Assembly: GCA_035354195.1 (NCBI GenBank)
Contig: DAOQAT010000006.1
Coordinates: 12,842-76,841, forward strand
Reading direction: 5' to 3'
Origin: Bacteroidales bacterium
Lineage (GTDB): Bacteria > Bacteroidota > Bacteroidia > Bacteroidales > CAIWKO01
Length of the DNA: 64,000 nt
A program made the translations under genes and the position numbers. Shown here one piece after another: positions 1,730 through 61,587 of the stretch (its first letter is position 1; each line of letters starts with the position of its first letter). The notes under the pieces are model-generated. The model was not told where the DNA came from. It worked only from the letters and a program-made list of their open reading frames with translations, and did not search any database.

Positions 1730-4700
1730 TTATCTCAGCAATGTAACAGTACCGTTGGATCTATATTCCTTGGCGTCATAGCCATTGGCGCTGAATATAT
1801 AATAATAGATTCCGTCAGCTGCTTTCTGGCCATTAATAGTTCCATCCCATTCGCCGCCAACTTCACTCCATGAAAAAATCTGTTTTCCCCAGCGGTTATA
1901 TATCAACATTTCCTCAGTTTCGAGACCTTCGGATTCTACCCTGAATGTTTCATTTGCCCCGTCATTGTTAGGCGTGAAAACATTAGGAATGGTGACCTTG
2001 GAAGGTTCATGTACGGTGATAATTATTTGAACAGTGTCCGTACAGAAATCCGGAGCGCCGGTACTCACAATCAGCACAACGGTATATTCTCCTGTGGCTG
2101 TGTATGAGTGTGATGGGTTTGGAGAATTGGAAGTAGTGCCGTCACCAAAGTCCCAAAGGTAATCAACCGCCCCGCTTCCTGTGAAATAAAACTGAACGGA
2201 CGTTGGTAAAAAAACAGTTTGTGCATCTGCGTATGCATCAGCATTTATGGGCGAATTGGTGCTGATCGTTGCAGAACCGGTTATGGTACAATTGTTTGAA
2301 TCACTTACGGTGACTGTATAATTGCCTGTACAAAGATTTAATACCTCTGAAGTATTCGAAACGGCACCGGTCCAATTATACTGATAGGGTTGAATTCCTC
2401 CGGTAACATTTACACTAACAGAACCATCACAGCTGTTGGTACATCCTTCATTTTCGTATGTGACGTCAATATCCAGGGCTGTGGGCTGAATGATCTGCAC
2501 GGTATCATATATTATACATCCCAGGTTATCAGTAATGGTAACATAAAATGTTCCGGCAGGAACGTTTGTTGCTGTCTGTCCCGTTTGTGCAGGTGAAGTA
2601 CTCCACAAATAGGTATAAGGTGTTGATCCGTTTATCGGGTAGACAGTGGCAGTGCCGTTACTTTGTCCGTTACATAGGACATCGGTCGTTGTCGGATTGT
2701 TTGTGCTGATATTACTGACCAGTACAGTATGTAAAGTTTGTGTTGATACACAATTGTTTTCTGAAACGGTAAGTGTTATGTCGTAACTTCCGGGTGATGT
2801 CCAGGTTACCTGGTGCGGGCCCTGACCTGAGCCAGGGACAGCGCTACCTCCTGAGAATCCCCATGTGTAAGTTGCCCCCGAAGACCCTGTTCCTGTGTAA
2901 GTAACGGTAGCCGTATTACCAACGCAGTTTGGCGACGATATGGTAAAATCAGAGGTAGGAGCAGGATTAACGGTAACGGAAACTGTAAATGTAGCTCCGT
3001 TACATGTTCCTGCAGTTGGGGTTACCGTGTATACCACAGTTATCGGAGCATTCGTGGTGTTGATTAACGTGCCACTGATGTTGGCTGCGTTTGATCCTGC
3101 AGCAGTACCTGTAATTCCAGCCACAACAGGTGCCGACCAGCTATAAGTTGTTCCAGTGGGGACTACACCATTGGTTATATCTACCGGGCTTGCAGTGAAC
3201 GTGCCTTGGCTGCATATAGTATCTGTCATATTAGTGACGGCAGGTTGCGGGTTAACAGTAATGGTAACTGTAAAGGCAGCCCCTGTGCAGGTTCCTGAAG
3301 CAGGAGTTACCGTATAAACTACGTTTATCGGTGAGCTTGTCGAATTGGTTAATGTGCCGCTTATATTTGAAGCATTTGTCCCTGCAGCTGTCCCGGTGAT
3401 TCCTGCCACAACTGGCGCTGGCCAGGTGTAAGAGGTTCCGGCAGGTACAATGCCATTGGTTCCATTCAAAGGTGTTGCAGTGAAAGTTTCTCCGCTGCAT
3501 ATTGATGCTGTCATATTGGTAATAGCGGGTGCCGGATTAACAGTAACGGTTACTGTAAAAGGACTACCTGTGCATGTTCCTGTTTGGGGAGTAATCGTAT
3601 AAACCACATTTACCGGGGCATTGGTTGTATTGGCCAAAGTCCCGCTAATAGTTGCGGCATTCGAACCTGATGCAGTACCGGTGATTCCGGAAGCAACAGG
3701 TGCCGGCCAACTGTAAGTAGTTCCTGTCGGGACAACTCCATTGGTTCCATTGACCGGTGTTGCAGAGAATGTACCACCGCTGCAAATGGTCGTAGTCATA
3801 GCAGTGACAGCGGGCGCCGGATTAACCGTAACCGTGATGGTAAAAGGAGCACCTGTACAGGTCCCGGAAGTTGGGGTAACGGTATAATCAACATTGATCG
3901 GATTATCGGTTGTATTGTTTAAAGTTCCGCTAATGGTTCCTGCATTTGTTCCTGCGGCTGTGCCTGTAATTCCAGTCGCAACAGGTGCCGGCCAGCTATA
4001 GGTAGTTCCTGAAGGAACAATTCCATTGGTTCCGTTTGCTGGACTTGACGTGAATGTTCCACCACTGCATATGGTTGCAGTCATGTTGGTAATGGCAGGG
4101 ACAGGGTTTACCGTAACGGTCACCGTAAACGGGTTTCCTGTACAGCTTCCCACCTGCGGTGTGACTGTATAAACCACATTTATAGGGGTATTTGTTGTAT
4201 TGGTTAAGGTGCCGCTGATGTCTGCTGCATTGGATCCGGCAGCAGCACCGGTAATTCCGGTAACACTGGGAGCTGGCCAGCTATAGGTAGTTCCGGCAGG
4301 AACAACTCCATTGGTGCCATTCACCGGGCTTGATGTAAAAGTTCCCCCGCTGCAAATGGATGCTGTCATATTAGTCACATCAGGATTTGGATTTACAGTA
4401 ACAGTTATTTGATTTGTAGAGGTGCATCCTGGCGATATTCCCGTAACAGAATATGTTGTAGTGGTTGTTGGTGATGCCGTAACGGTTGACCCGGTGGTTT
4501 GATTCAATCCGGTAGCGGGCGACCATGTATACGTGTCAGATCCTGAAGCCGTAAGGTTGATAGACCCATTAACACAAATAGCCGGGTTGGCCGGAGCCAG
4601 GCTTACACCGCCACTGGCAAGTGAAACGGTAACATTGTCGGTAACGGTTACATCATTTCCTACACAGCAATCATAGACTACTTGTGCAGTATAGGTCGTT

Positions 4701-5560
4701 GCGGAACTGGGGCAGACATTGACGGTCGCCCCGGTACCTATTTGTGTTGCGCCTTGCCACCACGTAAGGGTGTAGTTCGGGCTTCCGGCAGGAGTAAAAC
4801 GCCAGGCTTCATTGCTTGCAGTCCATTGCGAAGTGTTTCTTCCGGGAGCAGTAATACCAAGGGTCCCGTCAGGATTCTGTATGCCCACGATGGCATTACC
4901 GCCATTCCAGGATGTGCATAGAGGTTTGTTCTGGATGTATACTTCAATAACATTCGTGCTCTCATATAGAACGATTTGATGAGTAGCCAGCATGCTATTG
5001 CATTCAGTAGAAAACATGGCAATCTCGTTCCAACTCACAACATATGTCCGGCATGGGTATGAACCTAATATGGCATAATACATCTGCCCGGTAACGGCGG
5101 GATCTATATCATGATATGGCCCGAAAATATTTCCTGCAGGGATGAGGTCAGGAGAAGGACAAGAGGCAGAATATGACCACTCACAGAACGTACCCGCATC
5201 ACCAGTGGCAAATGAAAGAACACCGTTTGAACCTGCAATTATCTGGGTATAACTAACCCCGTAAAAACAAAAAGCAAAAGGAAGGGTGATGACACTGCTC
5301 CAGGTGTCATCAATATTCACCAGGATGGCAGTTCCCGTATTGTAAGCATAGGGAGGTGCATAGGGAATTGATGAAACAGTATAAGTTGTTGTGGCTCCGG
5401 TTGCAAGGCAACTTGCCGTCAGGTTTGTACAGTTTGTTCCGCAATCCAGGGTTACATTATTGCCGGCTTCAACACTGGGGCAACCTGGCTGAGCTTGCAG
5501 ACCCTGAATAATTGCAAAAAGAAATATGTTTGTAAAAAGTAAAGATTTAATAAGTTTCAT
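1730..5560 (-). CDS. 1276-aa cell-surface adhesin with PKD-like tandem modules, SprB-type repeats, a PKD domain and a T9SS type-B (gliding-motility-associated) C-terminal sorting domain
   Basis: Signal peptide MKLIKSLLFTNIFLFAIIQGLQAQ. Five 95-aa modules. SprB-like repeats (TDVLCNGQSNGTATV.., EGCTNSCDGSVSVNVTGGIQPYQYNW). PKD signature WDFGDGTTSNSPNPSHSYTATGEYTV. C-terminus IPNVFTPNNDGANETF...YNRWGKQIF...WDGTINGQKAADGIYYYI...GTVTLLR matches the type-B CTD pattern. Confidence 0.9.
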   Translation of the reverse strand: MKLIKSLLFTNIFLFAIIQGLQAQPGCPSVEAGNNVTLDCGTNCTNLTASCLATGATTTYTVSSIPYAPPYAYNTGTAILVNIDDTWSSVITLPFAFCFYGVSYTQIIAGSNGVLSFATGDAGTFCEWSYSASCPSPDLIPAGNIFGPYHDIDPAVTGQMYYAILGSYPCRTYVVSWNEIAMFSTECNSMLATHQIVLYESTNVIEVYIQNKPLCTSWNGGNAIVGIQNPDGTLGITAPGRNTSQWTASNEAWRFTPAGSPNYTLTWWQGATQIGTGATVNVCPSSATTYTAQVVYDCCVGNDVTVTDNVTVSLASGGVSLAPANPAICVNGSINLTASGSDTYTWSPATGLNQTTGSTVTASPTTTTTYSVTGISPGCTSTNQITVTVNPNPDVTNMTASICSGGTFTSSPVNGTNGVVPAGTTYSWPAPSVTGITGAAAGSNAADISGTLTNTTNTPINVVYTVTPQVGSCTGNPFTVTVTVNPVPAITNMTATICSGGTFTSSPANGTNGIVPSGTTYSWPAPVATGITGTAAGTNAGTISGTLNNTTDNPINVDYTVTPTSGTCTGAPFTITVTVNPAPAVTAMTTTICSGGTFSATPVNGTNGVVPTGTTYSWPAPVASGITGTASGSNAATISGTLANTTNAPVNVVYTITPQTGTCTGSPFTVTVTVNPAPAITNMTASICSGETFTATPLNGTNGIVPAGTSYTWPAPVVAGITGTAAGTNASNISGTLTNSTSSPINVVYTVTPASGTCTGAAFTVTITVNPQPAVTNMTDTICSQGTFTASPVDITNGVVPTGTTYSWSAPVVAGITGTAAGSNAANISGTLINTTNAPITVVYTVTPTAGTCNGATFTVSVTVNPAPTSDFTISSPNCVGNTATVTYTGTGSSGATYTWGFSGGSAVPGSGQGPHQVTWTSPGSYDITLTVSENNCVSTQTLHTVLVSNISTNNPTTTDVLCNGQSNGTATVYPINGSTPYTYLWSTSPAQTGQTATNVPAGTFYVTITDNLGCIIYDTVQIIQPTALDIDVTYENEGCTNSCDGSVSVNVTGGIQPYQYNWTGAVSNTSEVLNLCTGNYTVTVSDSNNCTITGSATISTNSPINADAYADAQTVFLPTSVQFYFTGSGAVDYLWDFGDGTTSNSPNPSHSYTATGEYTVVLIVSTGAPDFCTDTVQIIITVHEPSKVTIPNVFTPNNDGANETFRVESEGLETEEMLIYNRWGKQIFSWSEVGGEWDGTINGQKAADGIYYYIFSANGYDAKEYRSNGTVTLLR
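2969..4393 (-). repeat. five in-frame tandem repeats of 285 nt (95-aa modules) inside the adhesin CDS
   Basis: Modules start NP(N/V/A/Q)P and end FT(V/I)(T/S)(V/I)TV. All are exactly 95 aa with no indels. Recurring nucleotide strings such as ggattaac(a/c)gtaac(g/c)gt appear every 285 nt near 2965, 3250, 3535, 3820 and 4105. Confidence 0.9.
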
Positions 5561-5709: not shown

Positions 5710-6363
5710 ATGACTAATTTAATAATTGAATTTTTAAAAGAGTTATCGGAAAATAATAATCGCGAATGGTTTGCAGCGAATAAACAAAAATATGAGGCCG
5801 CAAAGAATGCCTTTGTAAGGTTAATAACACCGGTGCATGGAGCAATTTCGGTTTTTGATGCTGAAATCAGGGGAATTAAACCACAGGACTGTATGTTCAG
5901 GATATACAGGGATGTTAGGTTCTCAAAAGATAAATCGCCGTATAAAACAAATTTTGGAGCTTATTTTAATAAAAATGGAAAGAAAATCCACAATGCAGGT
6001 TATTATTTTCACATAGAACCCGGTAATTGTTTTTTATCCGGTGGCATATACATGCCTCCACCACCATTATTAAAATCTTTACGCCAGGAAGTGTATTATA
6101 ATTTTGATGAGTTTAAAAAAATTATTTCCGGTAAGAAATTCAGAGATTTTTTTGGTGATGTCACTGGTGATAAGCTACTAAGACTTCCTCCTGAGTTTCC
6201 AAAAGAATTTCCAGGTTCGGAATACCTTAAACTTAAAGATTATTATGTTGTTCATAATTACAATCCAACTGATTTCACCGAAAAAGAACTTATCAGTTAT
6301 GTCTCCAAGGTTTTTAAAGAGGCCAAACCATTAAATGATTTTCTTAACAGGGCAGTATCCTGA
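5710..6363 (+). CDS. DUF2461 (TIGR02453) family protein
   Basis: N-terminus FLKELSENNNREWFAANKQKYEAAKNAF and the motif YRDVRFSKDKSPYKTNFGA are characteristic of this family. Confidence 0.75.
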   Translation: MTNLIIEFLKELSENNNREWFAANKQKYEAAKNAFVRLITPVHGAISVFDAEIRGIKPQDCMFRIYRDVRFSKDKSPYKTNFGAYFNKNGKKIHNAGYYFHIEPGNCFLSGGIYMPPPPLLKSLRQEVYYNFDEFKKIISGKKFRDFFGDVTGDKLLRLPPEFPKEFPGSEYLKLKDYYVVHNYNPTDFTEKELISYVSKVFKEAKPLNDFLNRAVS

Positions 6364-9258: not shown

Positions 9259-10136
9259 TCGGTATACAATAGTTTAATGTTATCAAGTAATATTTCTGCG
9301 GTTGCAATGGTGTCGGGTTTGTATGCCTCAAAGTAAATCCTGAATCCTGTTGTATTAGAACTGACATTTGCAGAGGGCGTTAAATTTATATAGATTTTAT
9401 TCCATGAAGTATTTGGATTAATTATCATGGTTTCAATTTTCTCATTCTGGCCGGTAGTCAATACTGCATACATGCCAATTCCTAAGGGCACATTCGTTTT
9501 ATAGTTGAGTTCGAGTAACACCGCCGACTGATCCTGAGGAATGTCAAAAATATCATCCGATACGCTGCAAACATAGTCGTATGAAGCATCAAGATTGACT
9601 ACTCCGGAGCTTTGCCCTTCAAATACTTTGGTGCTGTCCTGGGTTTGGATGAAATTTGTATCACTGACACTGAATTTTATTAACGAAACACCGGCTGTTT
9701 CAAAATCTTCCATCCAGTGGATTTTATTTTCATAATAAGTCACCGTAGGATTAATAGTATCTATCTGTTCGGCAACCAGGTCAACAGTCGTTTCATAAGG
9801 TTGGTAAAACGGATAATAAGCTCTTGACATAGCTATGCCGTTGAGTTTTATACCTGGCCGTATCATAATGGTATGCTGGCCGGTTGCAAGAATCGGGAAC
9901 GTTGCCGGCAGTTCGTAAATTCCCTGCAAATCACCGTCTACATAAACCCAGGCGTCGGTTATCTTACAGGAGTTTGAGCCAAAAATTTCGTAAACCGTTG
10001 TAAGATCAATTTTGTCAATGTGTATGTACGACGGGACAAGGTCAGTTTTCTTACAAGAAATTAAACTGCTTATAATGAAAAGTCCGGTAAAAGCTAAAGC
10101 TATTTTTCTAAATCCTGTAAAGTAAAATTTTCCCAT
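9255..10136 (-). CDS. lipoprotein of unknown function
   Basis: Lipobox-like FIISSLISC. Its stop overlaps the start of the sugar transferase in an ATGA arrangement (9255-9258). Confidence 0.5.
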   Translation of the reverse strand: MGKFYFTGFRKIALAFTGLFIISSLISCKKTDLVPSYIHIDKIDLTTVYEIFGSNSCKITDAWVYVDGDLQGIYELPATFPILATGQHTIMIRPGIKLNGIAMSRAYYPFYQPYETTVDLVAEQIDTINPTVTYYENKIHWMEDFETAGVSLIKFSVSDTNFIQTQDSTKVFEGQSSGVVNLDASYDYVCSVSDDIFDIPQDQSAVLLELNYKTNVPLGIGMYAVLTTGQNEKIETMIINPNTSWNKIYINLTPSANVSSNTTGFRIYFEAYKPDTIATAEILLDNIKLLYTE

Positions 10137-50990: not shown

Positions 50991-52025
50991 TCATTTGTAA
51001 TAATTCTTAGAAAACCCCTGTGCGGTTTTTTTTCCGGCCCATACTTGTAACAGGCCTTTCCACATGCCCAGCCCGTACGCGATGATCTGAATGTATAATG
51101 TGATGATCGAGAGCAATGAGGTTTTAAGATTTTTATAAGTGGCAAAAGATTGGAAAAACGCAATGGCTGCTATGCCGACCATTCCTGCAGCAACAATCAG
51201 CCAAAGCCATTTCGGGAAAAACGGAAAGGGCGTGAGAATAACAAGTAATACGAACCCCGCAATGAGCAATGCGGGAATAAAATGCACCGGTTTGAACATC
51301 TGTTTGTCAATGCGTCCCAGGTTCACACGGGCAACGCCCCAGTTGAATATCTGCTTGTAAAACCGTTTCAGCGAGGTGCGGCGTTTATGGTAAACAAAAG
51401 CATTGGCTATCAGTCCAACTTTAAAACCGTTATTGTAAATCCGTGATGAAAACTCCATATCCTGTCCGTGCCGCAGGCTTCCCATGCCGCCAATTGTTTC
51501 GTAGACTTTTTTCGAAATGCCCATGTTGAAACTGCGCGGGTAGAATTTTTTCTGCACGGATTTTTTACTTCCGCGCGTACCGCCGGTTCCGATGAAGGAG
51601 GTCATGGAATAGTTGATGGCTTTCAGCAAAGGAGAAAAACTTTCATGGCAGGTGTCGGGGCCTCCCCAGGCATCCAGGGCGTTTTTTGTGATTTCTTCAT
51701 CTGTTTTCCGCAGCCATTCCGGTGGCAACATACAATCCGAATCAACAAAAATAAAATAGTCCCCTTGCGATTCACGCATGCCGCGGTTGCGGGCTTCACC
51801 GGGACCTTTGTTCTGTTGAAAAAGATAACGGATATTTAACCCCGATCCGGAATGATAATTTTTTATAAAATCTTCAGTGCCATCGGTTGAACCGTCGTCC
51901 GAAATCACAAATTCAAACTGTTCTCTCGGAAAATCAAGCTTCTCAGCCGAATCCAGCAGTTCTTTAATTTCTTCCAGCCGGTTATATGTTGCTATAATAA
52001 TGGAATATTTCATCTTATTTGTCAT
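50991..52025 (-). CDS. family 2 glycosyltransferase with C-terminal TM helices
   Basis: YSIIIATYNRLEEI, SDDGSTDGT and the DXD motif FVDSDC. 3-4 C-terminal hydrophobic helices. Confidence 0.85.
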   Translation of the reverse strand: MTNKMKYSIIIATYNRLEEIKELLDSAEKLDFPREQFEFVISDDGSTDGTEDFIKNYHSGSGLNIRYLFQQNKGPGEARNRGMRESQGDYFIFVDSDCMLPPEWLRKTDEEITKNALDAWGGPDTCHESFSPLLKAINYSMTSFIGTGGTRGSKKSVQKKFYPRSFNMGISKKVYETIGGMGSLRHGQDMEFSSRIYNNGFKVGLIANAFVYHKRRTSLKRFYKQIFNWGVARVNLGRIDKQMFKPVHFIPALLIAGFVLLVILTPFPFFPKWLWLIVAAGMVGIAAIAFFQSFATYKNLKTSLLSIITLYIQIIAYGLGMWKGLLQVWAGKKTAQGFSKNYYK

Positions 52026-52277
52026 TGCGCCTCTGCGTCTCCGCCGCGGCGGAGCGTCTCTGCGAGAACATTAAATAAAAAAATGTTGTTTTGTTTTTCT
52101 TTCCTTTCACTGCGTCTTTGCGTCTCTGCGAGAACATTAAATAAAAAAATTGACTTTTGTTTCTGTTTCCCTTTCTCTGCGTCTCCGCCGCGGCGGAGCA
52201 TCTCTGCGAGAACATTAAATAAAAAATAATGTTGTTTTGTTTTTCTTTCCTTTCATTGCGTCTTTACGAGAATAATT
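52023..52277. repeat. composite intergenic tandem repeat (about 3.5 units of 66-78 bp) carrying two copies of a GC-rich 16-bp palindrome
   Basis: The core TCTCTGCGAGAACATTAAATAAAAA starts at 52057, 52123 and 52201, with a degenerate copy at 52261. AATGTTGTTTTGTTTTTCTTTCCTTTCA occurs at 52082 and 52228. CTCCGCCGCGGCGGAG occurs at 52039-52054 and 52183-52198. Confidence 0.9.
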
Positions 52278-52278
52278 A

Positions 52279-54216
52279 TCAAAAATAGTTTTTAAGGTCA
52301 GCTTCTTTTGTTTTGTAATTGTCCGAATCTATGTACATCTTCTGCCAGATAGCCAATCCCGTCACGATCCACAAATAATTATAATGCCAGCGCATCTTCG
52401 GATGTGGCGAATGGTCCAGTATCCGCTTGATGTACCGGTAATTAAAAATTCCTTGTTTCTCTATAAATTCAGGTGTGAGAATAGCTTCGGCCGTACTTTT
52501 TAAATCTTTTTGAAATTGAATATAAGGATTGACACTGAACCCCCACTTTTTCTTGCTGATGATTTTTGGCGGAAGCTTTTGTGCCATGGCTTTGCGGAAC
52601 AGGTATTTGGTCTGGTTGTTTTTTATTTTAAGGTGAACCGGAATGGAAAAACCAAAATTTACCAAATCCAGATCAAGGAACGGAACGCGCTCTTCTACAG
52701 AATTGGCCATCGACATGCGGTCTTCCGTAAGCAGGTAATCATTGACCATTTTGCTCTGAAACTCGGTGAATAACACCTGATCCAGCGCATTTAAATGTTT
52801 GGAACGTTCAAAGAATTCATCAAATTCGGTATGGACTTTCTGACATTGTTCCTGCATTTGTTTGTAAAAATCCTGATGGTATATCTCTTTGTAAAAGCCG
52901 TTATCGTAATCCCATACATTACGCAGAATCAGATAAAAACGTTCTATATCGCCAATGGCAAGCAACATTTGCAACCCCCGCCGGTATTCATCTACTGACA
53001 AGATATGCGTGGGGCTTTGCATGTTGAACAACAGCCTGGATTTCCAACGGAAAACTTGTTGCAGCCAGGCAGGTGTGTGCTTATGATATTTGTTGAACGG
53101 ATAAATAAATTTATGGATGTCGTATCCGGCAAAAAGTTCGTCGCCGCCCAGCCCGCCAAGGACAACCGTAATATCTTTTCTTACAAATTTCGACATGTTG
53201 AAACCCTGCAACAGGTTTATTTTAGGTTCTTCGGCGTGCCATATCACTTCCGGGAATTGCTGCATCGGGTTCAACGTAAGGCTGAGCGTATGATGGTTGG
53301 TGCTGAAATGCTTTGCTATTTGCTCCGCATCAGGAAATTCATCCGTTGGTTCGTTGAAACCCATGGTAAACGTGTTGATCTGCGGCACACCAAGTTCATG
53401 CATTTTTTGAACTATGGTTGACGAATCCATTCCTCCCGAAAGGTAAACGCCCAGCGGAACATCGCTCATCAATTGCCGGTCGATAGCCTGTTTGATGTAA
53501 AAATGCATTTTTTCAACGGCTTCATCTTCGTTCATTTTTAAATCCACCTCGGGCTTTAACTCCCAGTAGCGCTGAATATGCACCTGGCCGTTTTCAAACA
53601 ACAAAAAATGGGCAGGCGGCAGGCGTTTAATTCCATCAAAAAGTGTTTCGTTTCTTTGGGTATAGCGCAGGTTCAGGTGGGAGTGGAGCGCGTTTAAATT
53701 TATGTTGCGGCTGACAGCCGGATGCAGCAATATACTTTTTTGTTCCGAGCCGAAGATCAGCAATCCGTTATGGAAGTAATAATGTACAGGTTTTACGCCA
53801 AAATGGTCGCGTACCAGCAGCAGCCGGTCGTTGTTCTTGTCTAACAAGGCAAAAGCAAAAATGCCGTTCAGCTTGTGAAAAAACGTACTGCCTTCTTCCT
53901 CGTATAAATGCACAATTACCTCGGTATCACTGGTGGTGTAGAACGTATGTCCTTTCTTTACCAGCGCTTCTTTTAGTTCTTTGTAATTGTATATTTCACC
54001 ATTAAAAATAATGCAGATGCTTTTGTCTTCATTGAAAATAGGCTGGTTGCCGGTGTTCAGGTCTATGATGGAAAGACGGCGGTGGCCCAGGCAGAAATCT
54101 TTATAGGTATGAACGGAGAAATCATCCGGGCCGCGGTGCTCGATAATTTTGAGCATATCCACCATCAGGGATGAATTGTCTTTGTTTTTTTCAACGATGC
54201 CGCAGATGCCACACAT
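52279..54216 (-). CDS. asparagine synthase-like glutamine amidotransferase (polysaccharide-locus copy)
   Basis: Start MCGICGIV at 54216 (Cys2 is required for Ntn chemistry). HRGPDD, HRRLSIIDL and the PP-loop YLSGGMDSS. Confidence 0.85.
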   Translation of the reverse strand: MCGICGIVEKNKDNSSLMVDMLKIIEHRGPDDFSVHTYKDFCLGHRRLSIIDLNTGNQPIFNEDKSICIIFNGEIYNYKELKEALVKKGHTFYTTSDTEVIVHLYEEEGSTFFHKLNGIFAFALLDKNNDRLLLVRDHFGVKPVHYYFHNGLLIFGSEQKSILLHPAVSRNINLNALHSHLNLRYTQRNETLFDGIKRLPPAHFLLFENGQVHIQRYWELKPEVDLKMNEDEAVEKMHFYIKQAIDRQLMSDVPLGVYLSGGMDSSTIVQKMHELGVPQINTFTMGFNEPTDEFPDAEQIAKHFSTNHHTLSLTLNPMQQFPEVIWHAEEPKINLLQGFNMSKFVRKDITVVLGGLGGDELFAGYDIHKFIYPFNKYHKHTPAWLQQVFRWKSRLLFNMQSPTHILSVDEYRRGLQMLLAIGDIERFYLILRNVWDYDNGFYKEIYHQDFYKQMQEQCQKVHTEFDEFFERSKHLNALDQVLFTEFQSKMVNDYLLTEDRMSMANSVEERVPFLDLDLVNFGFSIPVHLKIKNNQTKYLFRKAMAQKLPPKIISKKKWGFSVNPYIQFQKDLKSTAEAILTPEFIEKQGIFNYRYIKRILDHSPHPKMRWHYNYLWIVTGLAIWQKMYIDSDNYKTKEADLKNYF

Positions 54217-54329
54217 AATATTATTCGGATTGAAGAACAAAGATAGAATATTTTAATTTTAGTATTAGCATTTTAGATTTCAAAACCTGGTGTTGTGATA
54301 TTTTAATTAATTGTTTTGTGAAATTTTTG

Positions 54330-54337
54330 TACGTTTG
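54330..54337 (+). promoter_or_regulatory. -7 promoter box TACGTTTG
   Basis: Matches TAnnTTTG, 16 nt upstream of the ATG at 54353. Confidence 0.45.
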
Positions 54338-54352
54338 TTTCAAAAGAACATT

Positions 54353-55474
54353 ATGCCAGTAACTATAAAAATTGTCAGTTCAAAATCTGAACTTAAAAAA
54401 TTCATCTATTACCCGCTTGAGCTTCATAAAGATCACAAAAACTGGGTTCCTCCAATATTTTCTGAAGAATTTGCCTTTTATGATCCTACCAAAAATAAAA
54501 GCCTGCTTACCAACGAGCACATTCTGGCTCTTGCTTATGAAAATAACCGCATTATCGGGCGGGTAATGGGCATTATCAACAAACATTATAATGAGATTTA
54601 TAATATTAAAGATGCCCGTTTTTTTGCCATCGAATGCATCAATGATCAGCAGGTGATGCATGAGCTGATTGAATTTATAAAAAAATGGGCAGTATCCAAA
54701 GGAATGACCCGGCTGGTAGGGCCTTACGGATTTTCTGACAAAGACCCACAGGGTTTTATGATCGAAGGGTATGATCAAATGCCTTTAATTGCCACGAATT
54801 TCAATTTTCCATACATGGTTCAGTTATTGGAAAATGAAGGATTTTCAAAGGAGGTGGATTGTTTGTCATATAAAATGATGATCCCCGATACCATTCCTGA
54901 ATTGTACGATCAGATTCTGCAACGCACACTGAAAAATCATAGGTTGAGACTGCTGGAATTTAAACACAAGCGCGACCTGAAGCAGTATATCGTCCCGGTA
55001 TTTCGGCTGGTAAATCAAGCTTACAGCCCGATTTACGGTTTTGTGCCGCTGGACGAACAGGAAATGAAAGAAATGGCCGAAAAGTATTTTATGATACTTG
55101 ACTGTGAATTCGTAAAAGTGATCCTCGACGAAAACAACGAAGTCGCTGCTTTTATTGTTGCCATTCCGAACATGAGCAAAGGAATTATAAAAGCCAAAGG
55201 GAAATTATTCCCGTTCGGATTTATCCATATTTTAAAAGCTGCCAGGAACACCGACCAGCTTGATTTATTTCTTGGCGCTGTGAAGGATAAGTATCGCAAC
55301 CTGGGACTGGACGCCATGATGGGAAAAAGTGTCTTCGAATCAGCTTACAAAAGAAATCTCAAAATTATTGACAGCCACCTGATTTTAGAAAATAATGAGC
55401 TGATGAAGGCTGAAATTGAGAAACTTGGCGGTGTTGTTTATAAAAGATACAGGGTTTATCAGAAAAATATTTGA
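54353..55474 (+). CDS. GNAT-fold (double acyl-CoA N-acyltransferase-like) protein of unknown specificity
   Basis: The N-terminal pattern KKFIYYPLELHKDHKNWVPPIF...FYDPTKNKSL recurs in a Bacteroidota/Leptospira family annotated as N-acetyltransferases. ATG at 54353 chosen. Confidence 0.5.
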   Translation: MPVTIKIVSSKSELKKFIYYPLELHKDHKNWVPPIFSEEFAFYDPTKNKSLLTNEHILALAYENNRIIGRVMGIINKHYNEIYNIKDARFFAIECINDQQVMHELIEFIKKWAVSKGMTRLVGPYGFSDKDPQGFMIEGYDQMPLIATNFNFPYMVQLLENEGFSKEVDCLSYKMMIPDTIPELYDQILQRTLKNHRLRLLEFKHKRDLKQYIVPVFRLVNQAYSPIYGFVPLDEQEMKEMAEKYFMILDCEFVKVILDENNEVAAFIVAIPNMSKGIIKAKGKLFPFGFIHILKAARNTDQLDLFLGAVKDKYRNLGLDAMMGKSVFESAYKRNLKIIDSHLILENNELMKAEIEKLGGVVYKRYRVYQKNI

Positions 55475-55536
55475 TAAGTTTTCACAGTGTATAATCCAAA
55501 TAATTTAGAAATACTTATACAATACTATTGAATTGT

Positions 55537-55567
55537 AAAAAAAAAGCCGGAGAAAACCGGCTTTTTT
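55537..55567. terminator. bidirectional rho-independent terminator between convergent genes
   Basis: AAAAAAAAA-GCCGG-agaaaa-CCGGC-TTTTTT. The A-tract and T-tract allow termination from either direction. Confidence 0.7.
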
Positions 55568-55594
55568 GAATTGGATTAATTTTTCACGCTACTA

Positions 55595-58003
55595 TCATTT
55601 CAATTGAAAATGGATCGGTAACGTCATTTTGGAATTGGTGTTTTTACCATTTTGTTTTCCGGGTTTCCATTTTTTGTTCATCATTTTTACAACTCGCACT
55701 GCTTCTTCATCACAGCCACCGCCAATGCCTCTTTTCACGGTGACATTCGCGACGCTGCCGTCAGCTTTAACAGTGAATTCAATATAAACAGTACCTGAAA
55801 TTCCTTTGGTTTTTGCCTCTGCCGGATAGACCAGGTGAAGTTTAATAAACGCGTCCATAGCCGTTTGTCCTCCAATAAATTCAGGCATTTCTTCAACAGC
55901 ATTAAAAACTACCGGGCTTTGTTCTTCGGTATCATCAAGCTCAACCTTACGTTCCATAACAACACCGTGCGAAGGCATTACTTTCATGCACGACTTGTTA
56001 CCGCTGGCAGATCCATACCCGCCTACTGCATAATCGCTCACGTTTTCCGGTAATGGCAGAGGCTGTTTAACGGTAGCCTGTTTGCCTCCTTTGTTTCTGA
56101 CAATAGAATCTATGGCAATAAATGAGGTGTAGTTGGTCAGCAGGTTATATTTTAAACCCAGTCCGGTGATTTGTTCGGTAAGTTTGGGATCGTTGGCTGC
56201 ATTGTTGAAATCGTCCAGCATCCTTATCTTTTGCCTTGCCCACAAATATTTCAGCGCCCTGTTCGAAGGTGATGCTTCGGCTTTGCTGACGTCCAGCACG
56301 TATTCAAAATCTTCCTTACCGCTTTTACCTGTAATTTTAATCTTTCCAGTTGGATTTCCTTTCCATTTACCGAAAATGATCACCGGCCGCTCGGCAAGCA
56401 CATCGGGAACATTGGATGGTTCCAGATCATAAACGTCAAAACCTTCATACGTTACTTTTATATCCGTCAACACCGGGCTTTGAATATATGACCTGAATTT
56501 TTCTGCTTTAGCGTCAGCTTCTTCCTGTTTGGTTACAATAAATGATTCCCCCATACCTGCATGGGCAATGCCTTCAATCAGAAAACGGTTTACCGAAGAT
56601 CCAATGCCAAAGGCAAAGAAATTGGCTTTGTTGAGGTTGTTTTGTATCAGTTCAAACGATTCTTTTTCAACATCCACATAACCGTCAGTGGCAATGACGA
56701 ACGTTCTCGAAAACCCTTTTTGTTTTTCTACAGACAAGGCTTTTTTCAGGGCTGTCAGGAGTTCTGTACCGCCCGACCCTTGCTGTTCATCAATCATTTT
56801 TAAAGCCTTTTTCAGGTTTTCTTCGGTAGCAAAAACCGATTGCGGCATGAACATATTGGCGCATCCGGCAAACAACAATACATTGAACTTGTCCGTGGAA
56901 CGTAGGTTTTTAATAAGGTTTTCCAACACTTTTTTAGACGTTTCAATCGGATAACCGTTCATGGAACCGGATACGTCCATGATGAAAATATATTCCCTGG
57001 GAGGTATCTGGTCAACGGTGGGTTTTGGAGGTGGCTGCACCATGGCCAGGAAAAAATTTTCGCCCGGGCTAACGTTTTTGTAAAGCAAGAGCCCTGATTC
57101 TATTTTGTTGTCCGCAAGGCGGTATTGCACAATCACATCACGGTTGCCCTCCGATGTTCCTGTGTTTTTTAATTTCAGCATGGCAGAAGCCGGATTCTCG
57201 TAGTTGATCGTCATCTCGTGCGACGGGCAGCGGACATCTTTTATCGGCATGCCGGCAGCGAGGTTGATCCCGATGTTGAAGCTATAGTCTGGCTTTTCAC
57301 CGGCATGTGTGTATGGATTTGACACCCATTTGTCATTGGTAGAAGCAGTAGCTTCGGGTTTGTTTGAATAGCGCGGGCCGACGACAGTCGGATATACAAA
57401 TTCATAAACACCTTGTTCAGGGATCAAAAGTTCGGTGTAACACATTTCAATACTGATGGTGTCGCCGGGCATGATGTTGGCGACATTCATCTGAAACACG
57501 TTGGGACGCTGTTGTTCCAGCAGGGACGCGTTTTTTCCTTCACTTTTGGCCTGGTCGTATTCCTGCCGTGCCTTCTGCTTTTCCTGAATTTTGGCCGTAA
57601 TCAGCCGGTCGCCGACTTTCATTTTCATGCTGTATACGGCGGCACGCGTGGAAGCCGGGAAAATATAAATGGCTTCTATGACGTTTTTTCCACTGTTTAC
57701 ATACACCTGTTTCACGGTGACATCGGCAATAACACCGGCTATGTTCACATCGGCCGAAGTGGCTTTCAATGGCAACTGCTCGGTTTCGCTGCCTTCACTT
57801 TTTACAAAAAAGTAAGGCGACAATGTTTTGTCATCATCTTCTCCTGTTGTTTTAACAATCAGTGATTTGTTGTTTACCAAGGCCAGTTTGTCATTTGTTC
57901 TGTAACTAATTTGTGAAATGATGCTGGCCGGAATGATGAAGAAAAGAAACAGCAGTATGCAACTTACTGCCAGATTTTGATTGAAAAATTTTTGTGTTTT
58001 CAT
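55595..58003 (-). CDS. VIT domain + von Willebrand factor A domain protein fused to a C-terminal TonB_C domain
   Basis: N-terminal hydrophobic anchor/signal. VIT region (VNIAGVIADVTVKQVYVNSG...IYIFPAS...). vWA MIDAS motif FIMDVSGSM. C-terminus EEMPEFIGGQTAMDAFIKLHLVYPAEAKTKGISGTVYIEFTVKADGSVANVTVKRG...WKPGKQNGK matches the TonB C-terminal domain pattern. Confidence 0.8.
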   Translation of the reverse strand: MKTQKFFNQNLAVSCILLFLFFIIPASIISQISYRTNDKLALVNNKSLIVKTTGEDDDKTLSPYFFVKSEGSETEQLPLKATSADVNIAGVIADVTVKQVYVNSGKNVIEAIYIFPASTRAAVYSMKMKVGDRLITAKIQEKQKARQEYDQAKSEGKNASLLEQQRPNVFQMNVANIMPGDTISIEMCYTELLIPEQGVYEFVYPTVVGPRYSNKPEATASTNDKWVSNPYTHAGEKPDYSFNIGINLAAGMPIKDVRCPSHEMTINYENPASAMLKLKNTGTSEGNRDVIVQYRLADNKIESGLLLYKNVSPGENFFLAMVQPPPKPTVDQIPPREYIFIMDVSGSMNGYPIETSKKVLENLIKNLRSTDKFNVLLFAGCANMFMPQSVFATEENLKKALKMIDEQQGSGGTELLTALKKALSVEKQKGFSRTFVIATDGYVDVEKESFELIQNNLNKANFFAFGIGSSVNRFLIEGIAHAGMGESFIVTKQEEADAKAEKFRSYIQSPVLTDIKVTYEGFDVYDLEPSNVPDVLAERPVIIFGKWKGNPTGKIKITGKSGKEDFEYVLDVSKAEASPSNRALKYLWARQKIRMLDDFNNAANDPKLTEQITGLGLKYNLLTNYTSFIAIDSIVRNKGGKQATVKQPLPLPENVSDYAVGGYGSASGNKSCMKVMPSHGVVMERKVELDDTEEQSPVVFNAVEEMPEFIGGQTAMDAFIKLHLVYPAEAKTKGISGTVYIEFTVKADGSVANVTVKRGIGGGCDEEAVRVVKMMNKKWKPGKQNGKNTNSKMTLPIHFQLK

Positions 58004-58318
58004 GGCTTTGGGATTTAAAATAATTAGTATCAGAAATTATTGAATGTGGTTAAGATGTTATTTTAAAATTTTTCCATAAAATTTTTTAATAAACTTAGTT
58101 GATGGCTGAAGATCAGATATTCGTGTTAATGAAACCGGCCATTCAAAATCAGTAAAGCGTACCATTATTCAAGTTAAAGGTGGCCGGATAGTTATTGTTT
58201 TACTTTCAATTGAAATTCTATGAATTCCTCCCCGGTACTTAAATTCAAATTATGCTTTCAGGTTTGAAATTGTATTTGGCTATACACATTATTTGTATTT
58301 TTACACAAATATTTTTGA

Positions 58319-59503
58319 ATGGTACAGAATATCGAAAAAATCGAACAGTCACTCTCAAAAGTTCTGGCATACGCTGACAGCCACGATTACAAAGGCTATA
58401 ACAAATACGATGCACTCGATAGTAAATTCCTCTGGTTTATGTCCTTTGGAAGCAAGTTTTTGCGCCTGTTATACAGCCAGGTGGTGATGCGTGCCCCGGT
58501 CAATATCAGGCCGCTGTTTTTTGTCCCCCAAACCCGCAATCCGAAAGGTATAGCACTGTTTTCACTGGCTTATATGAACCGCTACAAAGCACATGGGAAT
58601 GCAAAAGATCTTGCAGAAGCCGAACTTCTACTTGATTGGCTTTTGCAAAATCCATCCAAAACAGAATGGGGAATGTGCTGGGGTTATCAGCACCCATGGC
58701 AGGATGTTGGCTTTTTTGCACCGGCCCACCTGCCCAACCGCGTGGTAACCTATTTTGTTACAACTGCTATGATGGACGCCTATGAAATTACCGGAAACGA
58801 AAAATACCTGCAAGCATCAGAATCTGCGCTTACATTTTTGTTAAAAGCTCCAAAAGTGCTGTACGAAGATGATACTATGAAATGCCTGAGTTATGTGCCT
58901 TCCGAAAAGATCAACTGGATCGTGATGGACGTTAGCATACTAACGGGATCTATCGTGGCGCGTGTAAATAAATATCTTAAAGATGAAGATCTTGCAAAAG
59001 AAGCGCGCAAACTGGTGAATTTTGTTGTCGACAAACAAACTGATTACGGCGCCTGGTACTACACGCATCCGGCCGGTGACCACCCGCGCAAACATGATAA
59101 TTACCACACCGGTTATATTGTAGACGCTATCCTTGATTACATGGACCATTCCGGCGATCAGTCTTTTATGGAGCAATACCTGAAGGGCGTGAAATATTAT
59201 AAAGAGAATTTGTTTTTACCCGATGGCGCGCCCAAATGGGCCAACGACAAGACGTATCCCTTTGATGTGCACGGATCCGCACAAGGAATTATCTCCTTTG
59301 TGAAAGCCTCAAGGTTTGATAAAAGCTATGTTGAACTGGCTGAAAAGATCGCCAACTGGGCCATAGATAATATGCAAAACCAGAAAAAAGGATTTTTCTA
59401 CTATCAGAAAACGTCGTTATTCCGTAAACCTTATACACTGATGCGCTGGTCGTGTGGATGGATGGGCCGGGGACTAAGTGAGTTGGTAAATAGTAAATTA
59501 TAA
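58319..59503 (+). CDS. conserved hypothetical protein, alpha-helical repeat (possible alpha/alpha-toroid, glycan-modifying enzyme-like)
   Basis: 394-aa ORF with no signal peptide. Recurrent aromatic-rich helical hairpin pattern (WGYQHPWQD, DYGAWYY, HTGYIVDAI, FDVHGSAQGI). The fold assignment is a guess. Confidence 0.4.
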   Translation: MVQNIEKIEQSLSKVLAYADSHDYKGYNKYDALDSKFLWFMSFGSKFLRLLYSQVVMRAPVNIRPLFFVPQTRNPKGIALFSLAYMNRYKAHGNAKDLAEAELLLDWLLQNPSKTEWGMCWGYQHPWQDVGFFAPAHLPNRVVTYFVTTAMMDAYEITGNEKYLQASESALTFLLKAPKVLYEDDTMKCLSYVPSEKINWIVMDVSILTGSIVARVNKYLKDEDLAKEARKLVNFVVDKQTDYGAWYYTHPAGDHPRKHDNYHTGYIVDAILDYMDHSGDQSFMEQYLKGVKYYKENLFLPDGAPKWANDKTYPFDVHGSAQGIISFVKASRFDKSYVELAEKIANWAIDNMQNQKKGFFYYQKTSLFRKPYTLMRWSCGWMGRGLSELVNSKL

Positions 59504-59506
59504 TTA

Positions 59507-59576
59507 AATTCAGAATGCAGAATTCAGAATGCAGAATTCGGAATTGAGAATTCAGAATAAATTTGGAATTAAATTT
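59507..59576. repeat. 14-bp-period tandem array A (unit AATTCAGAATGCAG, decaying copies)
   Basis: AATTCAGAATGCAG AATTCAGAATGCAG AATTCGGAATTGAG AATTCAGAATAAAT TTGGAATTAAATTT, between the stop at 59503 and the ATG at 59591. Confidence 0.85.
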
Positions 59577-59590
59577 AAATTTTATCTTTT

Positions 59591-59953
59591 ATGGTTGATT
59601 TTGATTTAAAATTACGAACAAGAAAATTTGCGATTCAGGTTTTCAGGTTTGCTGAAAAAATGCCGAGAACCATTGGTAATGATATTGTTTCTAAACAAAT
59701 CATTCGATCATCAAGTTCCGTTGCTGCTAATTACAGATCAGTTAATCGTGCAAAATCTCAGGCAGATTTTATTAATAAGCTGGTTATTGTCCAGAAAGAG
59801 GCTGATGAAACATTATTCTGGCTGGAATTTATATCTGATTTGGAAATTATTACAAATAAATTGGAATTAACCTCCCTGATGAATGAAAGTGAACAAATTT
59901 TATCTATTATTACAAAATCAATAATTACTTCAAAAAATAAATTTAAAAAATAG
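59591..59953 (+). CDS. four-helix-bundle protein (23S rRNA intervening-sequence protein / Avd-like family, TIGR02436)
   Basis: 120 aa. FAIQVFRFAEKMPRTIGNDIVSKQIIRSSSSVAANYRSVNRAKSQADFINKLVIVQKEADETLFWLEFI follows the family consensus (QllRs.tSi.aN..Eg..r.s..df..kl.ia..Ea.Et..wl). Confidence 0.8.
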   Translation: MVDFDLKLRTRKFAIQVFRFAEKMPRTIGNDIVSKQIIRSSSSVAANYRSVNRAKSQADFINKLVIVQKEADETLFWLEFISDLEIITNKLELTSLMNESEQILSIITKSIITSKNKFKK

Positions 59954-59997
59954 TTTGTTTTCAAAATTTCCCAATTAAAAAATAATTTACGTGTTAA

Positions 59998-60107
59998 AAA
60001 TAATTCTGAAATTTGACTTCTGATCCGCCGCGGCGGACTGACTTCTGAAATCTAACTTCTGAAATCTAACTTCTGAAATCTAACTTCTGAAATCTGACTT
60101 CTGAACT
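59998..60107. repeat. 14-bp-period tandem array B (unit CTAACTTCTGAAAT) interrupted by the palindrome TCCGCCGCGGCGGA
   Basis: AATAATTCTGAAAT TTGACTTCTGA[TCCGCCGCGGCGGA]CTGACTTCTGAAAT (CTAACTTCTGAAAT)x3 CTGACTTCTGAACT. It ends 3 nt before the ATG at 60111. Confidence 0.9.
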
Positions 60108-60110
60108 AAT

Positions 60111-61412
60111 ATGAAAAAAGTCCTTTTTATAACATACTATTGGCCGCCGGCAGGCGGTGCGCCTATCAACAGGATACTGAAGTTTTATCAATACCTGCAT
60201 GAGTTCGGCTGGGAACCTGTAATACTCACTACCGAAGGTGGCGACTTCCCTTTTGAAGATGAAAGTTTATTGAAAGAAGTTAAGCCGGAAACAAAGATAT
60301 ATCGATCTAAAGGCTTGAGCCTGCATAAAATCTTCAGCAAGGTGTCGCCGAAATCAAAAAAGAATTTTGTGCCTTATGGATTTACCGATGCCTCAAAAAG
60401 TTCGTTTATGGACAAATTGTCGCGCTGGGTGAAATACAACTTTATTCCGGATACACGCTTCCCCTGGTATTTCTCGACGGTGCGCAAGGCAGTAAAAATT
60501 ATCAATGATGAAAAAATTGACCTGATCTTCAGTTCATCACCGCCGCAGACCAACCACCTGATCGCCCGCAAAGCTGCCAGAAAGACCGGCTTGCCCTGGG
60601 TTGCCGACTTCCGTGATCCGTGGACCGATGTGTTTTGGTTGCTGAATAATTCAATTCGCTGGAAATGCATACATAATATTGACAAACGAATTGAACGGAA
60701 AACCATTGCGAAAATGGATGCCGTGATAACTGTCGGGCCTTCACTTGTCGAAATACTTCAGCGCAAGACGTCCAAAAAGATCAACCTGATCAGCAATGGT
60801 TACGATGATAAATACTTTGCGGGCTTCCATTACAAACCCAATCAAAAATTCAGGATTACTTATGCCGGCAGCCTGAGCAAAGAGCAGGACCCTGTTTGTT
60901 TTTTCAATGCGCTGGAATTGCTGAAAGACAACAAGGATTTTTATGAAAATTCAGAATTGTTGTTTCTGGGCAATTTCCCCGTGTACCTCAAAGACCTGAT
61001 TGAAAAATCATCGTATAAGGAAAAAACCATTTTTCTTCCGTATACTTTTTATACAGATTCTCTGGAAAGCATTGCTAATTCTGAATTGTTGCTCTTGATC
61101 GTCCCTAAAACCTCCGATAATAAATGCATCATCACCAGCAAACTTTTTGATTATATGGGAGCACAGCGGCCAGTGCTGGCTTTTGGCCCGACAGACGGTG
61201 ATGCAGCTGTGATCCTAAGTGATGCGGGAGCCGGCGCCATTTATGATTATCCCGATAGCCGGAATGCGGCAGATTTTATTCTTAAGAATTTTTCTGCATG
61301 GAAAAACAAAGAAGAAAGTACATTGGTTCAGAAAGAAAAAATAGAACGCTTCACCCGCCGCAACCTGACCAAACAGTTAGCTGAAATTTTTGATAATGCC
61401 GTTAACTCCTGA
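60111..61412 (+). CDS. GT-B fold glycosyltransferase (family 4 / group 1-like)
   Basis: N-terminus KVLFITYYWPPAGGAPINR, and a C-terminal nucleotide-sugar-binding-type region SKLFDYMGAQRPVLAFGPTDGDAAVIL. Confidence 0.75.
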   Translation: MKKVLFITYYWPPAGGAPINRILKFYQYLHEFGWEPVILTTEGGDFPFEDESLLKEVKPETKIYRSKGLSLHKIFSKVSPKSKKNFVPYGFTDASKSSFMDKLSRWVKYNFIPDTRFPWYFSTVRKAVKIINDEKIDLIFSSSPPQTNHLIARKAARKTGLPWVADFRDPWTDVFWLLNNSIRWKCIHNIDKRIERKTIAKMDAVITVGPSLVEILQRKTSKKINLISNGYDDKYFAGFHYKPNQKFRITYAGSLSKEQDPVCFFNALELLKDNKDFYENSELLFLGNFPVYLKDLIEKSSYKEKTIFLPYTFYTDSLESIANSELLLLIVPKTSDNKCIITSKLFDYMGAQRPVLAFGPTDGDAAVILSDAGAGAIYDYPDSRNAADFILKNFSAWKNKEESTLVQKEKIERFTRRNLTKQLAEIFDNAVNS

Positions 61413-61430
61413 GTTCAGCAATACCTCAAT

Positions 61431-61587
61431 CCTAATTCTGCCCTGTCCGGCTGATCCGCCATCTGGCGGACGTTCAGGCGGGCTTCCTAATTCTGAATTC
61501 ACATCCGCCGCGGCGGACTGCATTTTCACTTCTGCCTTCTAATTCTGCCTTCATAATTCTGAATTCATACTTCATACTTCTGCCTTC
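61431..61587. repeat. degenerate TTCTG(A/C)-type array C with embedded palindromes
   Basis: (C/T/A)(C/T)TAATTCTG occurs at 61431, 61486, 61538 and 61552. The tight 14-bp-period part is TTCTGCCTTCTAA TTCTGCCTTCATAA TTCTGAATTCATAC TTCATACTTCTGCC. It contains TCCGCCATCTGGCGGA (61455-61470) and TCCGCCGCGGCGGA (61504-61517). It fills the whole convergent spacer. Confidence 0.8.

Follow-up and report, generated by a model that had tools for sequence, protein, structure and literature searches.

A GC-rich palindrome of 14 bp, TCCGCCGCGGCGGA, in the following called PAL, is present in four exact copies in a stretch of 64,000 nucleotides from a Bacteroidales bacterium (contig DAOQAT010000006.1, positions 12,842 to 76,841), indicated as the window. 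PAL is rated as a very small dispersed palindromic repeat and, on balance, it is probably a non-autonomous module, 14 nt long, or 17–18 nt when the flanking CTG is counted, copied into non-coding DNA. PAL is present at some, and absent from other, orthologous and paralogous sites; it lies outside genes, is associated with tandem arrays, is spread across phyla and replaces a short stretch of its host sequence with a recurrent geometry. Loci other than the window are indicated by numbers beginning with L.

Exact matches to TCCGCCGCGGCGGA start at positions 52040, 52184, 60024 and 61504 and nowhere else in the window, as reported in a preliminary description of this DNA: the 12-mer core CCGCCGCGGCGG is absent outside the four sites, and a scan allowing up to two mismatches did not add any copy. 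Chance, already dismissed in that description, is a poor explanation: the mean over dinucleotide-preserving shuffles is 0.10 matches, and four were not reached in any of 100. The copies are extragenic, again as described, and are distributed over three spacers between called genes: 52026-52278, flanked by the genes for a GT2 glycosyltransferase and an asparagine synthase; 59954-60110, flanked by the gene for a 23S rRNA-intervening-sequence protein (IVP) and by a GT4 glycosyltransferase gene; and 61413-61587, between the convergent genes for the GT4 enzyme and a TonB-dependent receptor. The features of these regions, in window coordinates, are the following.

52031..52285, unstranded: tandem repeat of 60–78-bp units, between the genes for GT2 and asparagine synthase
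52039..52054, unstranded: PAL copy 1, exact match, as the 16-bp palindrome CTCCGCCGCGGCGGAG in repeat unit U1
52183..52198, unstranded: PAL copy 2, in unit U3, duplicate of copy 1 via a 144-bp tandem duplication
59507..59558, + strand: upstream heptamer array, AATTCAG x 7.4, reverse complement of the downstream array motif
59591..59953, + strand: IVP gene (four-helix bundle, PF05635), bracketed by inverted heptamer arrays
59999..60107, + strand: downstream CTRA-NNN heptamer array (14-mer ACTTCTGAAATCTA x 4.6), host of PAL copy 3
60024..60037, unstranded: PAL copy 3, between two CTGA motifs (ttCTGA-PAL-CTGActt)
61448..61480, + strand: relaxed hairpin, CUGA-UCCGCC-aucu-GGCGGA-cgu-UCAG
61504..61517, unstranded: PAL copy 4, flanked by the convergent GT4 and receptor genes
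61530..61587, + strand: array of 7- and 14-bp units (TTCTGCC / CTTCATA), adjoining copy 4

Both copies in the 52-kb repeat extend to the 16-bp form. The units that contain them, U1 and U3, share 98% identity over 52 nt and are spaced by 144 bp: this indicates a tandem duplication of a pair of units, one of them with PAL, and copies 1 and 2 are not independent. The units without PAL, U2 and U4, have TTT at the corresponding position. Two subfamilies had been distinguished by their flanks; the distinction is in part a product of this local duplication. Copies 3 and 4 are both hosted by arrays of 7-nt units, copy 3 taking the position held by an AAT linker in the last unit of its array; the array next to copy 4 is complementary to the one at 59.5 kb. 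The relaxed variant TCCGCC-ATCT-GGCGGA, also noted earlier, is found at 61455-61470: it has the stem of PAL with a 4-nt loop, and an outer CUGA/UCAG stem with a 3-nt bulge on the 3' side, for a predicted energy of -18.1 kcal/mol. The window thus documents three independent acquisitions of PAL, plus one relaxed hairpin.

The window sequence is the end of a JGI metagenome contig of 248,758 bp. Since a second JGI metagenome has the same locus with all four copies, and a Logan assembly has one, the copies are not assembly artefacts; one Logan contig ends in PAL. The source annotation includes a 59-aa gene over the PAL-bearing tandem repeat (L001 1912-2091, corresponding to window positions of about 52022-52201), a call which is almost certainly spurious.

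Insertion polymorphism at orthologous spacers had been set as a test by the preliminary description, and it was found. Loci of Bacteroidales relatives with an orthologue of the GT4 gene were compared at graded identity: L244 (92%), L371 (91%), L245/L246 (84%) and L247/L248 (80%). The two closest retain the IVP gene and both its flanking heptamer arrays, plus the arrays adjoining the receptor gene; neither PAL nor a TCCGCC...GGCGGA hairpin occurs anywhere across their 12.7–13.9 kb. In L245/L246 the IVP gene is missing and array remnants surround a different hairpin element, and L247/L248 have an IVP gene with short arrays: PAL is absent from all of them. As the arrays are kept where PAL is absent, they are older than PAL, which is a recent gain in the window's lineage. 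PAL would have entered the three spacers after the split from the relatives whose GT4 is 91–92% identical, one copy being later doubled through local tandem duplication.

The bare 14-mer floods large sequence collections through high-GC coding DNA, and all matches beyond the window were picked by exact patterns including the A and CTG flanks. The 18-mer A-PAL-CTG, ATCCGCCGCGGCGGACTG, with the flanks of copies 3 and 4, was found in at least 120 stretches in a collection of contigs with one genome per species, and a 21-mer with CTGA as left flank in at least 118 stretches from JGI metagenomes; by our own arithmetic, the chance probability of the 18-mer in 40%-GC DNA is about 1.3e-12 per position. 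Among the matches listed, GC is below 0.5 in about half of the genome loci. The high-GC matches, which sit in long open frames, are coincidental hits in coding DNA. Low-GC sites lie mostly outside long open reading frames (ORFs): 32 of 36 in one set and, in another, 88 of 98 outside ORFs of 120 aa or more.

The preliminary description had suggested a REP-like palindrome of Bacteroidota. PAL is not specific to that phylum: the 14- to 18-mer occurs, with identical letters, in Ignavibacteriota, Chlorobiota, Acidobacteriota, Planctomycetota, Verrucomicrobiota and other groups. By record names, many carriers are Ignavibacteria, and those from Bacteroidota belong to Chitinophagaceae, Ferruginibacter, Flavobacteriia and Bacteroidia; one, Agriterribacter humi YJ03 (L202), is a cultured isolate. 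A metagenome-assembled genome from Chlorobiota has at least three matches, and several others have at least two to four each. A phage origin was considered and rejected: in IMG/VR the bare 14-mer is found mostly in high-GC contigs, and only five loci have AT-rich flanks. A literature search for the string CCGCCGCGGCGG returned only primers and unrelated sequences.

Among the low-GC loci fetched, 112 unique exact sites compare with five sites with one mismatch and 12 with two, the exact class being inflated by ascertainment; the 17 variants, several of which retain the CTGA...CTG flanks, are counted as decayed copies. The window, L198, L229 and L184 have, no farther than about 100 bp from PAL, hairpins with the same stem and another loop: these relaxed copies hold the stem and vary the centre (ATCT, TTT, AGA and others). 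Other perfect GC palindromes are present in array-rich spacers: TCGCCGCGGCGA (L209, about 6343-6354) and ATTGCCGCGGCAAT (L229, about 2846-2859) have the core GCCGCGGC in common with PAL, and TCGCGATAGCTATCGCGA (L150, about 2058-2075) is built on another core. Within a larger group of such palindromes, PAL may be the most frequent one.

The association with short-period arrays, first seen in the window, extends to the other loci: 39 of the 112 unique low-GC sites (35%) are within 25 bp of a tandem array, arrays covering 2% of bases, and for 31 of these 39 the period is 7. The units near PAL are very diverse, and the arrays reach 34–44 copies; three of the array-associated loci (L294, L302, L313) come from a metagenome which also contains the window's organism. 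Several different short-period arrays may be adjacent within a single spacer, and heptamers there number up to 44 (about 300 bp): such spacers (L205 3290-3790, L150 1990-2480, L313 4060-4480, L302 6720-7010, L270 3140-3380) come from Bacteroidota and Ignavibacteria-type genomes, the unit sequence differing between copies.

A different kind of host is the apex of hairpins already present, as seen from pairs of sites with and without PAL, taken from one genome or from close relatives. In Acidobacteriota, repetitive extragenic palindromic (REP) sequences of the base form GTAG-GGGCACAG-catg-CTGTGCCC are found within the same contigs as the PAL form GTAG-GGGCACAG-PAL-TGCCC, and as a PAL form of opposite orientation, GTAG-GGGCA-PAL-CTGTGCCC. 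An unclassified lineage has GTAG-GTCAGGTTCC-ttgg-AACCTGAC alongside GTAG-GTCAG-PAL-TTGTGGTCCTGAC; a 'CSMAG' REP is also counted among the filled/empty pairs. In genomes with GTAG-type REPs, PAL is a secondary replacement of the REP apex, and not a REP itself. Stem-loops of other types behave similarly: in L228, GTTGCAG-gtg-TTATCACCTGCAAC is paired with GTTGCAG-PAL-TTAT..., and L280 and L293 provide the pair CAG-act-TCAG and CAG-PAL-TCAG. In Ferruginibacter, PAL is at the centre of a repeat of roughly 150 nt, resembling a miniature inverted-repeat transposable element (MITE).

The third kind of host consists of pseudo-copies of tRNA-Met genes, adjoining intact tRNA-Met genes whose GGG/CCC anticodon stem looks like the initiator-tRNA type. 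PAL replaces the T-loop triplet in L164 and L181, the D-arm in L224 and L202, and the segment after the anticodon in L222 and L189; in L370 it replaces 14 nt in a tRNA-like pseudo-copy, 130 bp from the counterpart without PAL. The pseudo-copies consist of the promoter plus the 5' half, or of the 3' half, in tandem or near the intact gene (L224 3750-4005, L202 975-1150, L164 4426-4967, L181 4727-4944, L222 1780-1936, L189 1-330, L370 about 9780-9970). Small GIY-YIG nuclease ORFs accompany them in L164 and L222; in L164, the ORF and a 3' piece of the tRNA are tandemly repeated as a unit.

In every filled/empty pair, the stretch between A and CTG is swapped for PAL: mostly 3 nt, up to 14 nt. One pair has CAC in the base form and CAG in the filled one; therefore, at least the G travels with PAL. 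These data are consistent with a process in which PAL would be exchanged for a short stretch, usually of 3 nt, between A and CTG, with no target-site duplication. Its preferred targets would be the variable 3-nt linker between the CTRA cores of heptamer arrays, similar to the short repetitive sequences in tandem known as STRR, the apex of pre-existing hairpins (REPs, other stem-loops, the MITE-like repeat) and duplicated tRNA-gene fragments. Copies may arise through copy-in at the DNA level, the candidate movers being an enzyme acting in trans, or template switching guided by microhomology between hairpin-prone sites.

A number of results weigh against the mobile module. A unit of 14 nt is below the size of any element known to carry transposase-binding ends, and target-site duplication, tested as a signature, was rejected: the sequence to the left of PAL shows no correlation with that to its right (Fisher p = 0.34), and direct repeats are missing from 48 of 53 sites. 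A search for long elements ending in halves of PAL found none. The ORFs screened yielded no mobilising gene for PAL: neither a RAYT (REP-associated tyrosine transposase) nor a Y1 transposase is among the 25 most frequent Pfam families of the small ORFs near PAL sites and, in the window, a Pfam screen of the 10 genes between 49 and 64 kb plus 9 additional small ORFs gave no RAYT or Y1 transposase, in line with the preliminary description, which had seen no RAYT-like gene there. The flank rule is only partly independent of the search pattern, and rests on the filled/empty pairs. Finally, exact identity across phyla could reflect selection for function.

Three further candidates were tried and rejected. 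PAL is not always at the tip of a larger hairpin: at low-GC sites the flanks show no more complementarity than after permutation, so that this description fits only the subset of REPs and stem-loops. PAL is not likely to be the excision footprint of a larger element with TCCGCCG...CGGCGGA ends, whose half-sites resemble random coding occurrences. An obligatory link to the IVP gene is not supported either: IVP is the top family among small neighbouring ORFs, yet with only 5 of 150, and the window, L171 and L274 are the only loci where it is the immediate neighbour of PAL. The association is probably indirect, via the heptamer arrays that both share.

Selection for function, as an alternative to movement, would make PAL an RNA hairpin retained, for instance, to stabilise 3' ends, to serve as a processing site or to insulate neighbouring genes, and its spread would be due to the usefulness of a strong GC apex where spacers are AT-rich. 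PAL is in fact predicted to fold into a GC stem of 5–6 bp with a tetraloop, at -8 to -14.5 kcal/mol including flanks, and often lies 20–100 nt past stop codons; the relaxed hairpin starts 36 nt after the stop codon of the GT4 gene, and copy 4 is flagged as weakly terminator-like. REPs, moreover, are stabilisers of mRNA 3' ends. Yet PAL displays no preference for transcriptional orientation or context: within co-directional gene pairs, 26 sites are sense and 17 antisense (not significant), 14 sites are convergent and 9 divergent, and divergent spacers are hit as often as expected. A role as intrinsic terminator was rejected, in view of this lack of bias and of the missing T-run in copies 1–3, copy 4 having a weak T-rich tail; the organism does have a canonical bidirectional terminator, aaaaaaaaagccggagaaaaccggcttttttg, between convergent genes (window 55530-55575; about 55540-55570). 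Close relatives dispense with PAL in the same spacers, PAL is also found in truncated pseudo-tRNA pieces, and Rfam has no family overlapping PAL in the window and in 32 PAL-bearing loci. A functional hairpin is, on this evidence, unlikely.

PAL might also lack a mobilising enzyme of its own and be a templated filler, a stable, replication-stalling hairpin copied by microhomology-mediated template switching and marking the junctions of local duplications or rearrangements. This would suit the replacement of a stretch bounded by short shared bases (A ... CTG), with no clean insertion, as well as the location of PAL at or in duplicated segments, such as the window repeat at 52031-52285 and the tandem pseudo-tRNA units, and, in L144/L231, at the edge of a paralogous region; in relatives, an extra ORF of 266–283 aa is found in the place of copy 4 and the relaxed hairpin of the window. 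The microhomologies, however, are very short (1–3 nt), template switching was not directly seen, and the presence in many phyla of one 14-mer, rather than of any local hairpin, is left unexplained: this origin is regarded as improbable. A perfect palindrome of 14 bp is, on the other hand, of typical size for a dimer operator, its core includes the CCGCGG hexamer, and TCGCCGCGGCGA and ATTGCCGCGGCAAT share the GCCGCGGC core in similar spacers: PAL could be a duplex site for a dimeric protein recognising this core, be it a regulator, a ParB/Noc-like protein, a restriction-modification enzyme or a homing nuclease. Against such a site, PAL has no set position with respect to genes or promoters, is found within arrays, REP apices and pseudo-tRNAs, and is missing from the same spacers of close relatives; relaxed copies, which keep the stem and change the centre, fit a hairpin better. 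We consider a duplex site very unlikely.

The mobile module, the reading preferred here, may be compared with known systems. The preliminary description regarded PAL as REP-like. The likeness holds in that PAL, as REPs and their REPIN doublets, is an extragenic palindromic repeat, with at least two to four matches in several metagenome-assembled genomes, and is polymorphic and array-seeking; it does not extend to the structure, since PAL in the window lacks the defining traits of a REP. REPs have GTAG at the foot of the hairpin, whereas neither GTAG nor CTAC adjoins any of the four copies; the stem of REPs is extended and imperfect, that of PAL belongs to a perfect palindrome of 14–16 bp; REPINs are inverted doublets, while copies 1 and 2 are direct duplicates 144 bp apart and copies 3 and 4 are 1.5 kb apart. 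The GTAG-hairpin REPs found in Acidobacteriota, Planctomycetota and the unclassified lineage host PAL as a replaceable apex. REPs, finally, are lineage-specific, and PAL is not.

The nearest precedents of PAL are the cyanobacterial small dispersed repeats (SDRs), together with REPs. SDR1-8 of Nostocaceae (Elhai et al.), reported as very small mobile repeats, are, as PAL, dispersed, able to form hairpins, present or absent at orthologous sites and inserted precisely into other short repeats, and have no known mover; PAL, at less than 30 nt, is dispersed, forms a predicted stem-loop, is present or absent, is embedded in heptamer arrays and is nested in small repeats. The two are likened by description only, and differ in size and constancy: SDRs measure 21–27 nt, PAL is a perfect GC palindrome of 14–18 nt, with one invariant sequence in several phyla. 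SDRs reportedly lie often within tandem heptameric repeats or minitransposons, and can be nested. Yeast mitochondrial GC clusters and Rickettsia palindromic elements are also short GC-rich palindromic inserts in AT-rich DNA, in loops or spacers, with no known mover; they belong to other hosts, are longer (about 30–150 nt) and form lineage-restricted families. SDR5 is reported to insert precisely within HIP1, and SDR-like repeats were reported to be absent outside Nostocaceae; Bertels and Rainey place SDRs among short repeats of unexplained origin.

The hosts of PAL, too, have published counterparts. Heptamer arrays of the TAACTGA type were described in Beggiatoaceae, Cyanobacteria and five Bacteroidetes (MacGregor 2015, PMC4679880): long ones lie between genes, often upstream of start codons, and close relatives lack them in the orthologous spacers. 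Cyanobacterial STRR arrays also consist of 7-bp units. The arrays hosting PAL share the period of 7, the intergenic location and, often, the position just upstream of start codons; they number up to about 44 copies, and close relatives lack them or have different ones. The published work describes the arrays, in which PAL is a guest: the terms 'palindrom' and 'GC-rich' do not occur in PMC4679880.

The more surprising parts of these results are the invariance of the sequence across phyla and the strong preference for period-7 arrays. It is possible, and suggested here tentatively, that one nearly invariant mobile module of 14–18 nt hops among arrays, REP apices, MITEs and tRNA-gene fragments in at least five phyla. 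If true, this would point to a widespread, unrecognised mobilising activity, or to a DNA-repair pathway, pasting one specific hairpin beside CTG motifs; no mobile DNA described so far would be as small as PAL, nor would PAL be restricted to one lineage as REPs and SDRs are. REPs and cyanobacterial SDRs are regarded as confined to particular lineages, each with a mover of its own, whereas a single exact 14- to 18-mer is found in the non-coding DNA of distant phyla and lands always in the same kinds of place. The way in which repeats of less than 30 nt move, the nature of heptamer (STRR-like) arrays and the reason why they attract inserts, and the existence of a common enzyme or repair pathway become testable, with the cultured carrier Agriterribacter humi YJ03 as a starting point. 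In practical terms, assemblies break at PAL and its host arrays, which also give rise to spurious small ORFs.

Other features were noticed around the PAL-bearing spacers. The IVP gene with its inverted heptamer arrays (window 59507-60107) is also found at L244 845-1430 and L274 5250-5780; the inverted arrays are predicted to pair over the entire IVP ORF (z = -3.8, -2.0, -1.9), resembling the stem of a ribosomal intervening sequence. Gene and arrays look like a mobile, or RNase III-processed, cassette. At L245 9700-9840 the gene is replaced by a MITE-like insert, with terminal inverted repeats gagattcctca...tgaggaatctc and a perfect GC-rich stem of 23 bp (ggaggaggaaagcagcggagcgc, atag loop). 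Between the GT4 and receptor genes, relatives have the extra ORF of 266–283 aa, with no Pfam match (L244 2789-3589, L371 3952-4767, L245 11354-12205), where the window has just 175 bp (61413-61587), comprising the relaxed hairpin, PAL copy 4 and arrays; in L245, a ParE-like toxin pair is inserted after the asparagine synthase gene. These spacers are hot spots of small-gene gain and loss.

Farther away in the window, the terminator at 55530-55575 gave weak, non-significant Rfam matches to enterobacterial small RNA families. On the minus strand, an ORF of 1276 aa (1730-5560) contains 5.1 copies of a 285-bp unit (2957-4402, 71% matches), and presumably encodes a repeat-domain surface protein.

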